DNA from: Acidobacteriota bacterium
GTDB taxonomy: Bacteria; Acidobacteriota; Terriglobia; Terriglobales; Acidobacteriaceae
NCBI GenBank assembly: GCA_028876335.1
Contig: JAGWSG010000187.1
Coordinates: 2,362 to 66,361 of the forward strand
Direction: 5' to 3'
Length of the DNA: 64,000 bases
Positions within the stretch are counted from its first letter, which is position 1, and every line of letters begins with the position of its first letter. Both the position numbers and the translations under genes were made by a program. The notes beneath the pieces are model-generated. The model worked only from the letters and a program-made list of their open reading frames with translations, made no database searches and was not told where the DNA came from. This document shows, one piece after another, positions 20,085-25,238 of the stretch.

Positions 20085-21740
20085 TTAGACTTCCATAATC
20101 ACCGGCATGATCATCGGCCGTTTGCCGCTCGACTTCTGAATGAGCTTCTTCAGGTCGGCACGAATCTTGTCCTTGACCATACCGTAATCCGACTTTTGTT
20201 CGCTGTTGAGCGAGTCCAGTGTCTTCAGCACTGCTTCGCGCGCCTGCTCGGTGAAGTCCGCACCGCCAAAGCCCCGCATAACAACTTCAGGTGCAAGCTC
20301 AAGTGCGCCCGTACGCTGGTTGATGGCCAGAATCACTACCACGAATCCGTCTTCGCTCAGGATACGGCGGTCGCGGAGGACCAGATCCTCAACAACCTCG
20401 ATGGACGAGCCTGAGTCGATAAGCACGCGGCCGGCCTGTACCTTGTCGAGCCTGCGCGCATTGTCTTTGTCGATCTCGAGCACATCGCCGTCTTCGATTA
20501 CGATGGCATGCTCCACCGCGCCCGTTTGCAGGGCAACTTCCGCATGGCGGCGCAGATGACGGTAATCTCCATGGACAGGGATGAAGTACTTGGGCCGCAC
20601 AAGATTGATAAGCAGCCGCGTCTCTTCCTGGCTCCCGTGGCCACTCACGTGGATTAATCCATGAGAGCCGTCGTCATAGATGACATTGGCATCACGACGA
20701 TACAGGTGATCGATGACGCGATAGATGCTTTTCTCATTTCCAGGAATGATGCGTGAGCTGAGCAGGACCGTATCGCCGGCTTCAATGCGCGCGTGCTTGT
20801 GGTTGTCCACCGCCGCACGGCTTAGCGCGCTCATCGGCTCGCCCTGTGTGCCGCTAATGAGCACCATCAGCTGATCGGGCGTATAGTCGCGCATCTGGCC
20901 CGGGTTGATCATCAGGCCCGGTGGAATATCGATGTAGCCCAGATCCTGCGCAATTTCCGTGCTCTCCAGCATCGACCGCCCTACAACCGCAACTTTGCGG
21001 CCATGCTGCCGAGCCAGTTCAAGCGCAATCTTGATGCGGTAAATGGATGACGAGAAGCAACTGAAGTAGAGCTTCCTCTTGGTTCTTGAAAAAATCTCAT
21101 CAAGCCGTGGGCGAACCGATGCTTCGGAAGGTGTATAGCCGGTGCGATCGATATTCGTTGAATCCTGCAGCAGCGCCAGCACGCCACGTTTGCCGTACTC
21201 GGCAAAGGTGTGAAGGTCAAACGGCTTGTCATCCAGTGGCGAGAGGTCGATCTTGAAGTCGCCCGTATGAATCACAACGCCGGCCGGAGTATCAATCGCC
21301 AGCGCCACGCAATCCACCAGCGAATGCGTCACGCGAATTGGCTCAATGGTGAACGGCCCAATAGAAAACTTTTCTTTCGGCGCAATCTCGATCAGTTCCG
21401 TCTCATCGAGCATCTGGTTCTCTTCCAGATTGCCTTCCACATAGGCGAGAGTGAACTCGGTGGCGTACACAGGAACCTTGAGTTCGCTCAAAAGCCATGA
21501 CAGGCCGCCAATATGATCCTGGTGGCCATGCGTGAGTATGATTCCCCGCACGAGCGCCTTGTTTTCAACAAGGTAGGTGATGTCGGGAACCACGATATCA
21601 ACGCCAAGCAGCTCTGACTCGGGGAACATAAGTCCCGCGTCAATAACGATGATGTCGTCGCCCCAGCGCAGGGCTAGGCAGTTCATGCCGAATTCGCCAA
21701 GGCCGCCAAGAGGGATGATGTGTAGTTTATTGGTGGGCAT
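20085..21740 (-). CDS. rnj: Ribonuclease J
   Basis: LGGLGEFGMN, THGHQDHIG, HTGDFK, GTQGEP, HVSGH, PVHGD. Confidence 0.96.
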   Translation of the reverse strand: MPTNKLHIIPLGGLGEFGMNCLALRWGDDIIVIDAGLMFPESELLGVDIVVPDITYLVENKALVRGIILTHGHQDHIGGLSWLLSELKVPVYATEFTLAYVEGNLEENQMLDETELIEIAPKEKFSIGPFTIEPIRVTHSLVDCVALAIDTPAGVVIHTGDFKIDLSPLDDKPFDLHTFAEYGKRGVLALLQDSTNIDRTGYTPSEASVRPRLDEIFSRTKRKLYFSCFSSSIYRIKIALELARQHGRKVAVVGRSMLESTEIAQDLGYIDIPPGLMINPGQMRDYTPDQLMVLISGTQGEPMSALSRAAVDNHKHARIEAGDTVLLSSRIIPGNEKSIYRVIDHLYRRDANVIYDDGSHGLIHVSGHGSQEETRLLINLVRPKYFIPVHGDYRHLRRHAEVALQTGAVEHAIVIEDGDVLEIDKDNARRLDKVQAGRVLIDSGSSIEVVEDLVLRDRRILSEDGFVVVILAINQRTGALELAPEVVMRGFGGADFTEQAREAVLKTLDSLNSEQKSDYGMVKDKIRADLKKLIQKSSGKRPMIMPVIMEV

Positions 21741-21816
21741 TCGTCAAGTTTGATGCTATCACCGGGGCCGATGGAACTGTGGTCCCGCGATCTCCAAAAA
21801 ATATCAATCTACCGTC

Positions 21817-21879
21817 CAATCCAAAACCGGAACTGATTCGTTCCTCCTGTGTTAGCGAGTTCTCTCGCAACACAGGAGG
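21817..21879 (+). promoter_or_regulatory. Candidate ECF promoter plus anti-Shine-Dalgarno hairpin
   Basis: CAATCC-N15-TCGTT at 21817-21842. Hairpin CCTCCTGTGTT(a)GCGAG-ttct-CTCGCAACACAGGAGG at 21843-21879 contains the SD for GTG 21886. Confidence 0.55.
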
Positions 21880-21885
21880 CGAATT

Positions 21886-22785
21886 GTGGAAAGAATCCAG
21901 GCACTGGATCGTACCTGCGTGTCACGGCGCAGGTTCCTCGGTGGAATGGCCGCCGGAGCAGGAACGGCCGCAGTGGCCACTTTGGCTGCGGGATGCGGTT
22001 CATCGAGCATGTCCATGTCTACCCCACCTGCGCAGACGCAGATTACCGATGCGGATGTGCTCAACTTCGCTCTAAACCTTGAGTATCTGGAGGCGGAATA
22101 CTATTTGCGCGCTGCAACAGGCACCGGGCTCTCCGATGCCGATGCCGGCACCGGAGCTGGCATGGTAACTGGCGGCGGGCAGGTGGTATTCGCAACTCCC
22201 GCCATTCAGCAATACGCGCTAGAGATTGCCAATGACGAACTGGCCCATGTGCGATTCTTGCGTAAAGCTCTTGGATCTGCTGCGGTCAGCCGGCCAGCAA
22301 TTGACTTTACCAACAGCTTCAACGCCGCCGCAATGGCAGCAGGAATTGGCAGCTCTTTCAATCCTTTTGCAGACGAGAACAGCTTTCTGGTGGGAGCATT
22401 CACGTTTGAAGACGTAGGCGTGACCGCGTATCACGGGGCCGCTGGACTGCTGCAAAGCAAAGCATACCTCAGCGCCGCCGCGGGCATCATGGCCACTGAG
22501 GCTTACCACGCTGCGGAAATTCGCACCCTCATTGCAGAACTTGGTGGCGCCTACCTCGATGCAGCCAACAAGATTTCAGCTTTGCGAGCGGCTGCTGGCG
22601 GCGGGGCGGAGGTATCGGTCTCAGGCAGCACCATCGTTGCGGCGGATTCAGATTCGATCGCTTTCGACCGGGACACAGATGAAGTACTCCACATTGTCTA
22701 TCTGAATGCGACCACTGGCGCAGTGGCGTCTGGCGGCTTTTATCCCAATGGAATGAACGGCGCAATCAAAGCCTCAACCAAATAA
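21886..22785 (+). CDS. Ferritin-like domain protein, predicted Tat lipoprotein
   Basis: SRRRFL Tat motif, LAAG-C lipobox. Di-metal ligands LEYLE, ELAH, FED, EAYH. Confidence 0.85.
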   Translation: MERIQALDRTCVSRRRFLGGMAAGAGTAAVATLAAGCGSSSMSMSTPPAQTQITDADVLNFALNLEYLEAEYYLRAATGTGLSDADAGTGAGMVTGGGQVVFATPAIQQYALEIANDELAHVRFLRKALGSAAVSRPAIDFTNSFNAAAMAAGIGSSFNPFADENSFLVGAFTFEDVGVTAYHGAAGLLQSKAYLSAAAGIMATEAYHAAEIRTLIAELGGAYLDAANKISALRAAAGGGAEVSVSGSTIVAADSDSIAFDRDTDEVLHIVYLNATTGAVASGGFYPNGMNGAIKASTK

Positions 22786-22797
22786 GGAGCGGCACAC

Positions 22798-23691
22798 ATG
22801 GAATCGACAGCAATTACAGGCAACAGGCCAGCTGAAGGTCTGCTGGGCCGCAGAGCAGCAATGGTACTGGGTGGGGCGGCCTTGGCTGGACTTGCATTTG
22901 GCAGCAGAGCCAATGCCCAATCCGCAACCGTAACCGATACAGACATCTTGAACTTCGCTCTGAATCTGGAATACCTCGAAGCGCAGTTCTATACCCTTGC
23001 AACAACCGGCATGACAATTGACCAGATTGGCATTGGCATCACCAGCGGTAGTGGCGCAGCCGGAGGCACCGTAACGGTCAAGTCCAACCCCCTTGTCCCG
23101 TTTACCACAACTCTGCTGCAGCAATTCGCGGCTGAGCAGGCGCTGGAAGAACAAAATCACGTCAAGTTCCTGCGCACTGCCCTCGGTTCAAACGCAGTCG
23201 CCATGCCGAATATCGACTTGATGAACAGCTTCAACGCACTTGCGCAGGCGGCCGGACTGGGCAGTTCGTTCGACCCGTTCGCCAGTGAAACGAATTTCCT
23301 GCTAGGCGCCTTCATTTTTGAAGACGTGGGAGTAACAGCATACAGCGGCGCGGCTGGTCTCATCAGCAGCAGTGCATATCTTGATAAGGCTGCAGGCATC
23401 CTCGCGGTGGAGGCCTATCATGCGGGCAGCATCCGGCTTCGCATCTTCCAGGCTGGACAGGCTGCAATGGACGCATCCGCCAAGATTGCGGCCGCGCGTG
23501 CATCGTTGGACGGCACTGGGAATGACGACATCGGCGTTGGATTAAGTGGTGGCGCGGCAACCATTGTTGATGCCGATGACAACGCCATTGCTTATAGCCG
23601 AACAACGTCGCAGGTTCTCAAGATCGTGTATGGAGGAGGAGCATCGGGCGGCGCGTTCTTCCCGAATGGTTTGAATGGAAATATCAAATAG
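22798..23691 (+). CDS. Ferritin-like domain protein, paralog 2
   Basis: RRAAM...ANA signal; LNFALNLEYLEAQFY, EQNH, FEDVGVTAY, EAYH. AAGGAG SD. Confidence 0.85.
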   Translation: MESTAITGNRPAEGLLGRRAAMVLGGAALAGLAFGSRANAQSATVTDTDILNFALNLEYLEAQFYTLATTGMTIDQIGIGITSGSGAAGGTVTVKSNPLVPFTTTLLQQFAAEQALEEQNHVKFLRTALGSNAVAMPNIDLMNSFNALAQAAGLGSSFDPFASETNFLLGAFIFEDVGVTAYSGAAGLISSSAYLDKAAGILAVEAYHAGSIRLRIFQAGQAAMDASAKIAAARASLDGTGNDDIGVGLSGGAATIVDADDNAIAYSRTTSQVLKIVYGGGASGGAFFPNGLNGNIK

Positions 23692-23715: not shown

Positions 23716-23754
23716 GCAGCAGTCCGGGCCCCCGCCCGGCTGCTGCTCTTTTTT
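23716..23754 (+). terminator. Intrinsic terminator after the ferritin-like pair
   Basis: GCAGCAG-t-CCGGGC...GCCCGG-CTGCTGC stem followed by TCTTTTTT. Confidence 0.8.
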
Positions 23755-23838
23755 GTTGACGGCAGCGGAACATACGCCGAAGTTACATTGCATTCGCCAG
23801 GAACGGCCCATAGAATACGCTTGATTCAACGCCGCCGC

Positions 23839-24447
23839 ATGTTTGCAAAATTGCTCAATCCGATTCTCAAGCTGCTTCGTTCCGAAAGTGGCGGAACAAC
23901 TCCATCAACAGGGACCATTGCTGACGCTAGCGATGTGGCTCTGCTGGAGAGTGTGGCCGCGGGGCAGCAGCAGGCAATGGCGACGCTTTTTGATCGTTAC
24001 GGGGGAATGGTCTATTCGGTTGCGCTGCGTGTTTTGAATGACACGGGACGCGCTGAAGACCTGATGCAGGAAGTGTTCCTGCAACTCTGGCGGGAGCCGG
24101 GTAAATTTTCTTCAGGCAAGGGATCATTGGGAGCATGGCTTGCCGTAGTGGCAAGAAACCGTGCTGTGGACGTGCTGCGCGGGCGCAAGCCGAGTGACCC
24201 AGTGGATGAAGTGATATTGACGTCAAAGATGGACCTGTCGGTAGAAATCGAACGCGGTCTGTTGATGGAGAAAGTTCGCGCGGTGATGAAAGAGCTACCT
24301 GCCGAACAGCAGCGCTCCCTTGAACTGGCGTTCTTTGAAGGTTTGACTCACGCGGAAATCGCCCAGCAAACGGGCGACCCGCTTGGAACGGTGAAGACGC
24401 GCATTCGGTCAGCGTTGGGAAGTTTGAGAAAGGCAGTCGAGGCATGA
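23839..24447 (+). CDS. ECF sigma factor (SigK-like)
   Basis: AEDLMQEVFLQLW, WLAVVARNRAVD, FFEGLTHAEIA...LGTVKTRIRSAL. Confidence 0.92.
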   Translation: MFAKLLNPILKLLRSESGGTTPSTGTIADASDVALLESVAAGQQQAMATLFDRYGGMVYSVALRVLNDTGRAEDLMQEVFLQLWREPGKFSSGKGSLGAWLAVVARNRAVDVLRGRKPSDPVDEVILTSKMDLSVEIERGLLMEKVRAVMKELPAEQQRSLELAFFEGLTHAEIAQQTGDPLGTVKTRIRSALGSLRKAVEA

Positions 24448-25238
24448 CGGAACAACAGCACACCGCACAGGAAGAGTTGGCTCTCTTCGCCTTGCAGGCA
24501 TTGCCTAAGGCGGAGCAGGATGCCGTGCGCGCGCATGTGGCTGAGTGTTCGGTATGCCGTGAGGAACTCGCTCGTCTGCAGGGTGACGTGGCATTACTTG
24601 CGCTCTCCGTGGAGCAGCATCCACTGCCGGCTGGCGCTCGTGAGCGTCTGCTCGAGCGCATAGCAAATCAGCCGCAGAGCGCCAGCAATGTGGTCCACAT
24701 TGAATCAGGCAAGACGGCGAAGAAAATCTACTCTTCTGTCTCCTGGTCGCTGGCGGCCGCACTGCTCATCTTCTCGGTTGGCTCACTGCTCAAGGTCGGC
24801 CAACTCAACATGAAGATTCAGCAGCAGGCCGAGCAACTCAAGCAGCAGGAACAGGACACCGCACAGGCCACGCGCGCGCTGGACGTTCTGACCGCGAAGA
24901 ATGCACAGCACATCACGCTCACTTCGGCTCAGGCGCATCCCGAACCGGAAGGCCGCGCCGTCTATCTTGCTTCAACCGGTGGCCTCATCTTTCAGGCCTC
25001 GCATCTTGATCCCTTGCCTGCGGACAAGACCTATGAGCTTTGGGTGATCCCCGCGGACGGCAAAGCACCTATTCCTGCCGGTCTCTTCAAGCCCGATGCA
25101 ACCGGAAGTGCAAGCGTAGTTTTGCCACAAATTCCAGTTGGCGTGCGCGCAAAGGCCTTCGGAGTCACGATGGAAGCGGCCCAGGGCTCAAAGACACCGA
25201 CGCTGCCAATTCTTCTGGCCGGAGCAGCGGGCGAGTAA
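24444..25238 (+). CDS. Anti-sigma factor (RskA-like)
   Basis: N-terminal H...C..C zinc-finger remnant, one TM, RskA C-terminus (YELWVIP, AFGVTMEAAQGSKTPT). ATGA overlap with the sigma gene. Confidence 0.88.
   Translation: MTEQQHTAQEELALFALQALPKAEQDAVRAHVAECSVCREELARLQGDVALLALSVEQHPLPAGARERLLERIANQPQSASNVVHIESGKTAKKIYSSVSWSLAAALLIFSVGSLLKVGQLNMKIQQQAEQLKQQEQDTAQATRALDVLTAKNAQHITLTSAQAHPEPEGRAVYLASTGGLIFQASHLDPLPADKTYELWVIPADGKAPIPAGLFKPDATGSASVVLPQIPVGVRAKAFGVTMEAAQGSKTPTLPILLAGAAGE

Follow-up and report, generated by a model that had tools for sequence, protein, structure and literature searches.

A putative SigK-like ECF promoter within a Shine-Dalgarno-masking hairpin ahead of a ferritin-like operon in an uncultured acidobacterium: a possible start-site-dependent gate on translation

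The DNA analysed here is a 64-kb window of the genome of an uncultured soil acidobacterium (assembly size 3.8 Mb), and all coordinates refer to this window. Within it, an intergenic gap of 145 nt separates the gene encoding RNase J (rnj) from a divergently oriented operon that encodes two paralogous ferritin-like proteins. This gap contains a hairpin that buries the Shine-Dalgarno sequence (SD) of the first gene of the operon, and a putative promoter of the kind used by extracytoplasmic function (ECF) sigma factors, whose -10 element reaches into the hairpin (Table 1). The first ferritin-like protein presents a twin-arginine translocation (Tat) signal (SRRRFL) and a lipobox (LAAGC), and the position of its GTG start codon at 21886 is common to its orthologs. 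In the public annotation (P0001, 279 aa), the protein begins about 20 codons 3' of GTG 21886 and thereby lacks the Tat signal; the orthologs favour GTG 21886. Downstream of the second gene, a strong intrinsic terminator, which is not listed by a simple terminator scan, probably owing to a bulged T at 23723, stands between the ferritin-like operon and an operon encoding an ECF sigma factor and its anti-sigma factor.

The hairpin is composed of a 5' arm, CCTCCTGTGTT(A)GCGAG, with a single bulged A, a TTCT loop and a 3' arm, CTCGCAACACAGGAGG. It contains 16 bp, arranged as 11 plus 5 Watson-Crick pairs, with a predicted energy of -30.4 kcal/mol when folded as RNA. Shuffled versions of the sequence average -12.5 kcal/mol (z -6.8), and none of 200 shuffles was as stable. 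The outer pairs of the hairpin, CCTCC/GGAGG, leave the SD of GTG 21886 fully paired. When occlusion was ranked over 1058 SD-bearing candidate gene starts of the same genome, each taken with 85 nt of upstream context, the energy required to open this SD (14.3 kcal/mol) was the highest of all (rank 1 of 1058), the median being 2.9 and the 99th percentile 10.3 kcal/mol. The hairpin noticed in a preliminary description of this DNA is thus confirmed and lies far beyond chance, and every element sits where that description had placed it, including CAATCC (21817-21822), TCGTT (21838-21842) and the SD.

Table 1. Coordinates of the features at the ferritin-like locus and the adjacent sigma factor operon, numbered within the 64-kb window.
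Feature	Position	Strand	Remarks
RNase J gene (rnj)	20085-21740	minus	Divergent from the ferritin-like operon
A-tract AAAAAATAT	21796-21804	+	About 13 nt upstream of the -35; putatively UP-element-like; could also belong to the divergent rnj promoter
-35 element AATCC	21818-21822	+	ECF (SigK-like) promoter
-10 element CGTTC	21839-21843	+	Spacer of 16 nt at this locus; scan anchored on CGT
Full hairpin	21843-21879	+	5' arm 21843-21859 with bulged A21854; loop 21860-21863; 3' arm 21864-21879
Anti-SD CCTCC	21843-21847	+	Last base of the -10 plus discriminator; 5' of the predicted start; pairs with GGAGG
Predicted ECF-dependent transcription start, G	21851	+	G21849 as alternative; from Y-R step, C of the -10 at 21839
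Hairpin remnant in predicted ECF mRNA	21851-21871	+	5'-terminal stem-loop GUU(A)GCGAG-UUCU-CUCGCAAC
Shine-Dalgarno GGAGG	21875-21879	+	Final five bases of the 3' arm; 6 nt before GTG 21886
Ferritin_2 protein 1 gene	21886-22785	+	Pfam PF13668, E 1.9e-45
Ferritin_2 protein 2 gene	22798-23691	+	Paralogue of protein 1; Pfam PF13668, E 1.5e-41
Intrinsic terminator of the ferritin-like operon	23716-23757	+	GC-rich stem followed by a T-run, read from the sequence
Second promoter copy AATCC-N16-CGTTC	23857-23882	+	Before the sigma factor gene; predicted start G23890
ECF sigma factor gene, SigK-like	23935-24447	+	170 aa from probable start GTG 23935
Anti-sigma gene, zf-HC2 and RskA_C	24444-25238	+	Overlaps the sigma stop codon; Pfam PF13490, PF10099

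Several other identities were considered for the hairpin. A repeated or mobile palindromic element, of the repetitive extragenic palindrome or miniature inverted-repeat transposable element kind, is ruled out by the presence in the assembly of one copy of the 5' arm with up to two mismatches allowed. An intrinsic terminator or attenuator is likewise ruled out, given that no U-run comes after the stem, the adjoining bases being CGAAUUGUGG on the plus strand and AACGAAUC on the minus strand, and that the terminator scan made no call. The hairpin was also rejected as an element of the rnj 5' untranslated region: adjacency to rnj is not kept among the orthologs with a hairpin, and the hairpin lies upstream of the start (near 21791) expected from a minus-strand sigma-70-like candidate promoter. 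Spacing and composition, as read from the sequence, spoke against TGTGT...ACACA being a CRP/FNR-like or Fur-like operator, and this reading was rejected. An Rfam scan at E values up to 1 matched the hairpin to no family, returning only two chance-level matches to eukaryotic families.

The 5' end of the hairpin coincides with the last base of a putative promoter, AATCC-N16-CGTTC (21818-21843). The leaders of orthologous Ferritin_2 operons were compared in a set of 160 loci from species genomes and metagenomes, anchored on the start codon, of which 151 were usable. ATCC-N16/17-CGT(A/T/G) was present in 98 of these 151 leaders, typically about 45-65 nt before the start codon. The logo of the matching leaders reads (C)AATCC(A/G) ... 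CGT(A/T)C, with an A before ATCC in 88% of them, an A or T after CGT in 87% and a C at the next position in 75%. An A/T-rich stretch from -22 to -14 was furthermore observed in 91 orthologous leaders anchored on ATCC, reaching 84% A+T at -18/-17, and a conserved A-rich block, GAAAAAWWT, was noted about 12-13 nt upstream of the -35 element (leaders L016-L175). Genome-wide, the strict motif yields 34 matches, approximately the number that base composition predicts; a reversed-sequence control gave 2 matches and is a poor null because of TA depletion. Among these 34, the two sites of this locus alone have an open reading frame at a leader's distance (42-52 nt) that could plausibly be a target gene.

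The identification of AATCC-N16-CGTTC as a genuine ECF-type promoter is therefore strongly supported by sequence conservation. The preliminary description had read it as CAATCC-N15-TCGTT; the assignment to the ECF type stood, the motif being kept in orthologous leaders and before the sigma factor gene, and the register shifts rightwards by one base. The promoter spacer is joined to the -10 element by a small inverted repeat, GGAAC-tgattc-GTTCC (21829-21844), which is followed by GGTTTTGG on the minus strand and was flagged as terminator-like by the simple scan. A third strict match, outside the window, lies on the minus strand of contig C48 at about 49585 (AATCCAAAAC...CCGTTC) and shows a pyrimidine-purine (Y-R) step at C+11/12, counted from the C of CGT. 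It is located about 190 nt before a gene for a small secreted Cys/Gly/Lys-rich protein (MKNQLNAALLTAALAG...CKGKNDCKGQGGCK), which may be a further member of the regulon.

A SigK/RskA-type pair had been announced about 2 kb downstream, and the domain searches located it there. The sigma factor contains regions 2 and 4 only (Pfam PF04542 and PF08281/PF04545), which is the group-4 architecture, and an RskA-type anti-sigma factor exceeding the cut-off of NCBIfam NF052375 is encoded directly 3' of it. The best PDB match of the sigma factor is M. tuberculosis SigK (4nqw, E 4e-27), and the NCBIfam model of the SigK subfamily (NF007228) is its second-best model, at 138 bits and thus below the cut-off of 226. 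A cysteine pair is conserved in 94% of ECF18 and 56% of ECF19 sigma factors (PMC7509140); the 170-aa protein contains no cysteine and hence lacks the redox pair of the ECF18/19 type. On these sequence features SigK-like is a fair description, short of a formal assignment to the ECF18/19 groups.

The start codon of the sigma factor gene is probably GTG 23935 and not TTG 23788 (219 aa), since the open reading frame from the latter would contain the second copy of the promoter motif, that is, the sigma factor's own promoter. No clear SD was seen ahead of GTG 23935. The ferritin-like operon and the sigma factor gene share the motif AATCC-N16-CGTTC, and the motif was also identified before 24 of 42 orthologous sigma factor genes; its presence before the sigma factor gene, here and in orthologs, indicates autoregulation. 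An inverted repeat, GTTCCG-N7-CGGAAC (23879-23897), spans the predicted start of this second promoter, with its 5' arm within the -10 element.

In ECF promoters, the CGT of the -10 element usually lies about 10-12 nt before the transcription start. Across the leaders, position C+11 is a pyrimidine in 78% of cases and position C+12 a purine in 91%, and the sigma factor gene promoters present the same Y-R step. With the C of the -10 element at 21839, this step places the predicted start at G21851, with G21849 as an alternative. Either base would fall inside the 5' arm of the hairpin, downstream of CCTCC. A start at 21848-21849 had been estimated previously; the present prediction lies within 0-3 nt of that estimate and still past CCTCC, the exact base being now G21851. 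In many lineages the first transcribed bases (C+11 to C+17) follow a conserved pattern, TG(T/A)A(A/C)G(C/A), which reads TGTTAGC here.

SD accessibility was modelled for RNAs that all end at 21900 and differ in their 5' end. Opening the SD costs 13-14 kcal/mol as long as the 5' end is at 21843 or earlier; the cost falls to 10.6 (21844), 7.6 (21845), 5.9 (21846) and 2.9 kcal/mol (21847), and to under 1 kcal/mol for 5' ends from 21848 to 21851. The sharp energy switch that had been anticipated is thus reproduced in the model. RNAs beginning at 21849 or 21851 are predicted to fold an 8-10-bp 5'-terminal stem-loop, GU(GU)U(A)GCGAG-UUCU-CUCGCAAC(AC). A 5'-proximal stem-loop, which may be a stabilising one of the ompA/aprE type, is likewise predicted in four close relatives, in keeping with the earlier suggestion of a 5' stem beside an exposed GGAGG.

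These features suggest a mechanism in which RNA polymerase with the locally encoded, RskA-controlled sigma factor would recognise AATCC-N16-CGTTC and begin transcription at about G21851, within the 5' arm of the hairpin. The resulting mRNA would contain neither CCUCC nor the next few bases, would carry the terminal stem-loop and an open GGAGG, and would be translated. An RNA entering from upstream would contain the whole 5' arm, form the 16-bp hairpin and be effectively untranslatable. With the short RNA open and the long RNA masked, the output of the Tat-exported ferritin-like pair would be tied to the sigma factor both transcriptionally and translationally. The element is a probable member of the known class of start-site-dependent occlusion of the ribosome binding site (RBS). 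Its more precise reading as a SigK-like ECF promoter built into an RBS-masking hairpin, forming a gate of the type known from bacteriophage T4 gene e and from sigma-B, is one that we put forward tentatively, with a little less than even confidence. This reading presupposes a start at or near the predicted base, the existence of longer RNAs and a masking that has been selected rather than arisen incidentally. In the modelled energies, start-site-dependent occlusion appears physically compelling in this genome and weakly conserved.

Four relatives with 83-88% protein identity (L176-L179) were obtained through a protein search and contig look-ups, and their leaders were aligned; looking up the exact protein yielded no contig of the same strain. 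The nearest of them, L176 (88% identity), presents identical synteny, including the divergent RNase J gene. The -35 and -10 elements, TGTGTT, AACACAGGAGGC and the start codon are kept in the leaders of these relatives, and AGGAGGC is also conserved. The modelled SD opening energies for the long and short RNAs are 13.0 and 1.0 kcal/mol in this genome, 7.8 and 0.9 in L176, 4.0 and 0.6 in L177, 4.0 and 2.0 in L178, and 7.7 and 1.9 in L179; the difference in L176 counts in favour of the gate. All five leaders fold a stem-loop at the predicted 5' end, with differing apical sequences, and this stem-loop appears to be a more constant feature among close relatives than the masking of the SD. The check for covariation in the leader stem that had been proposed gave a weak result, with only one compensatory pair in an alignment-based count over the close relatives.

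Evidence on a broader scale was obtained from approximately 91 de-replicated leaders of distant orthologs. The median SD opening energy is 5.1 kcal/mol for RNAs beginning 40 nt upstream of the -10 element, against 2.8 kcal/mol for RNAs beginning at the predicted start, and the former value decreases to 4.0 kcal/mol upon mononucleotide shuffling of the upstream part (p 9e-6). Of the pairing made by the SD in the long-RNA model, 57% involves bases that precede the predicted start, with partners clustering at C-10 to C0 and at C+4 to C+8. Furthermore, pairing of the promoter core (C-14 to C+11) with the RBS region of its own leader is better than with those of other orthologs (mean rank 0.37, p 1.4e-4), whereas two control regions showed no preference for their own RBS in the same test.

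Individual cases of such complementarity sit in unrelated branches of the protein tree. In L018 and L030, a CCTCC discriminator pairs with the SD, and in L124 a CTGCTGT pairs with an ACAGCAG located between the SD and the start codon. L023 makes use of the proximal spacer (13.7 kcal/mol for the long RNA against 1.8 for the short one), and the Edaphobacter group presents AGCTCC or GCTCCT just 5' of the -10 element, against GGAGCT (about 10-11 versus 2-4 kcal/mol). In this last group (L028, L034, L035, L106, L108, L115 and L131) a conserved repeat, TGAAAC-N10-GTTTCA, spans the predicted start and has the conserved motif YGTAAGYG in the loop. The repeat may serve as an operator or, in read-through RNA, form a stem. 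L028 comes from the cultured Edaphobacter modestus DSM 18101, with the anti-SD in its spacer, and L030 from the cultured Occallatibacter savannae AB23.

A co-directional gene lies just upstream in 54 of 74 orthologs, and in many orthologs a co-directional housekeeping gene ends 20-60 nt upstream, as exemplified by cinA in L023 (34 nt from the -35 element) and purM in L035 (49 nt). Where a co-directional open reading frame ends within 65 nt of the -35 element, the long and short RNAs differ more in opening energy (by 3.9 kcal/mol, against 2.2 otherwise; one-sided p 0.011), in a sample that includes several members of one clade. Acidobacteriaceae ECF promoters before the Ferritin_2 operon may habitually carry an anti-SD in non-essential positions (the proximal spacer or the discriminator), so that only sigma-initiated mRNA would be translated and purM or cinA read-through would be silent across many lineages. 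An arrangement of this kind, evolutionarily maintained and constituting the first ECF case of sigma-gated translation, seems to us rather unlikely.

Several observations weigh against a selected, RBS-masking gate. In the close relatives the discriminator reads CTGCC (L176), CTGCA (L177 and L179) or CTGTC (L178) in place of CCTCC, and the occlusion of the SD in the long RNA is weaker (4.0-7.8 versus 13.0 kcal/mol); perfect masking is therefore specific to this lineage. Among distant orthologs, the excess of SD occlusion is small with dinucleotide shuffles (means 5.34 versus 4.51 kcal/mol, p 0.015) and is independent of the strand of the upstream gene. The own-RBS signal also fades as relatives are collapsed by protein identity, from p 3e-4 with 74 representatives to 0.015 with 54 and 0.17 with 38. 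Because CGT(A/T)CC(T), the promoter consensus, already resembles an anti-SD, it contributes some of the complementarity and partly explains the ortholog-wide tendency. RBS complementarity in the promoter zone hence constitutes a real, but modest and patchy, tendency across orthologs. At this locus, moreover, the upstream gene is divergent, and the sole plus-strand candidate in a permissive scan is a weak sigma-70-like promoter, TGGGCA-N17-TGcTATCAC (21734-21762), with a start near 21769. This candidate sits in a block of about 35 nt beside the rnj start codon (21741-21775) that varies hardly at all among relatives whose neighbouring protein has just 83-88% identity; the block could equally be a leader or autoregulatory element of rnj, or the plus-strand promoter itself.

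The constancy of the 5' stem-loop in close relatives raises the alternative that the functional unit is only this terminal structure (21851-21871), guarding the ECF mRNA against 5'-end-dependent decay. The CCTCC extension would then have arisen in this lineage as a by-product, through two substitutions in a discriminator free of constraint, and the silencing of read-through RNA would be invisible to selection. This explanation, which we regard as quite possible if doubtful, accounts for a 5'-proximal stem-loop that persists at the predicted start while its apical sequence changes and for an anti-SD part that close relatives do not conserve, and it accords with the lack of a co-directional gene upstream and with an ortholog-wide signal that is weak after de-replication. 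It accounts less readily for the nature of the two substitutions, both of which pair better than the L176-type bases (C-G in place of U.G, U-A in place of G x A) and bring the uninterrupted pairs to 11, and for an SD occlusion that is the most extreme among the 1058 gene starts. Several unrelated lineages hold RBS-complementary sequence in the same promoter zone, and covariation is thin for the stem-loop itself, at one compensatory pair; both points argue for masking over the stem-loop as the sole functional unit.

The palindrome could instead act as DNA, either as the operator of a dimeric repressor or as a cruciform-prone sequence over positions -8 to +29 of the ECF promoter, adding a second transcriptional layer. 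A near-perfect 37-bp inverted repeat does cover the -10 element, the discriminator and the start, and the Edaphobacter-group repeat, conserved in sequence, spans the predicted start as well; all pairs of the hairpin are Watson-Crick, so that an RNA function and a DNA function are not separable from sequence alone. The repeats found at the same position in orthologs nevertheless vary in sequence, arm length and spacing (from 4 to more than 40 nt), which fits RNA pairing better than a protein site, and some ortholog stems contain G-U pairs that, in a sequence reading of L025 versus L107, are workable only in plus-strand RNA. Arms of 16 bp around a 4-nt centre are in addition atypical of an operator, and no regulator gene is consistently linked to the locus, with an HxlR gene lying 2 kb away. 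Action at the DNA level thus appears improbable. Even less probable, in our judgement, is a true start upstream of 21843, with the full hairpin present in the normal mRNA and translation requiring an opener such as heat, a small RNA, RNase III cleavage or a helicase. The start site is a prediction, and RNase III might conceivably cleave a helix of 16 bp, but the promoter geometry and the conserved Y-R step put the start at C+12, the SD-masking pairs are not kept in close relatives, and no Rfam family was matched. The thermometer variant, which the preliminary description had raised as its alternative, was not borne out. In known thermometers (ROSE and fourU families) the stems are weak and contain mismatches; a thermometer of these types was rejected because this stem, with 11 plus 5 uninterrupted pairs at about -30 kcal/mol, is far more stable and because the predicted ECF transcript is devoid of the anti-SD.

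The reading of the element as an ECF promoter within an RBS-masking hairpin has precedents in other systems. In bacteriophage T4, late promoters lie inside RBS-masking hairpins at genes e, soc, 49 and I-TevI, with an effect of approximately 100-fold for gene e (PMC3014915). As proposed here, the SD or start codon is hidden in the T4 hairpin whenever the RNA comes from an upstream promoter, and an alternative-sigma promoter (gp55 in T4) in the DNA of the 5' arm yields transcripts that lack this arm and are translated. The T4 arrangement serves temporal control in a phage in which read-through early RNAs are documented, whereas the present one would act on a chromosomal stress operon of an acidobacterium, with a divergent upstream gene and a hypothetical long RNA. 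The 'dual induction' described for sigma-B of B. subtilis (ctc, yvrE and others; McCormick et al. 2021) also relies on alternative-sigma starts inside structures that sequester the SD in longer sigma-A isoforms, with translation efficiencies differing up to 100-fold, and these authors suggest that other alternative sigma factors may act likewise (PMC8208050). The proposed likeness resides in an alternative stress sigma factor that starts transcription within an extended structure sequestering the SD of the longer isoform. The sigma-B cases involve a group 3 sigma factor, polycistronic long isoforms and long-range structures, and were shown by end-enriched RNA sequencing (Rend-seq), ribosome profiling and dimethyl sulfate mutational profiling with sequencing (DMS-MaPseq); the present case is a prediction and would involve an ECF (group 4) sigma factor and a compact hairpin of 37 nt whose anti-SD lies in the discriminator.

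In the fold-back inhibition of IS10/Tn10 and IS50, said to go back to Davis, Simons and Kleckner in 1985 and to Krebs and Reznikoff in 1986, sequence just 5' of an element's own start reportedly pairs with the transposase RBS, and only RNA from its own promoter is translated. The pairing of sequence immediately upstream of the own start with the RBS would be shared with the hairpin studied here, given its predicted start. In the insertion sequences it is transposase genes that are reportedly shielded from outside promoters, whereas the present locus is not a mobile element, because the hairpin is unique in the genome. Lastly, the M. tuberculosis SigK-RskA system (ECF18/19) resembles the downstream module not only in the structural match of its sigma factor and in the zf-HC2 and RskA_C anti-sigma factor directly 3', but also in its small regulon, which comprises the sigma factor's own operon and an adjacent operon for exported proteins (PMC4105308). 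The targets differ, being Ferritin_2 proteins here and mpt70/mpt83 in M. tuberculosis, and the sigma factor differs in its lack of cysteines and in its score below the NCBIfam SigK cut-off.

The class of mechanism is hence already established, and what would be new here is its use by an ECF sigma factor, its presence in this phylum and its compact design with the anti-SD in the discriminator. The comparative analysis provides a usable promoter consensus, AATCC-N16/17-CGT(A/T)C, with a predicted start twelve bases past the C. It also outlines a minimal regulon for an uncharacterised SigK-like system of the Acidobacteriaceae, consisting of two Tat-exported ferritin-like proteins and the sigma factor operon, which is testable in cultured relatives. 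If the proposed gate is true, dual induction, the switching on of transcription and translation together by a sigma factor that starts inside an inhibitory structure, would reach the ECF family, which among alternative sigma factors is the largest class and the most widespread, as well as a poorly studied soil phylum, and such a gate could be as compact as five bases of a discriminator.

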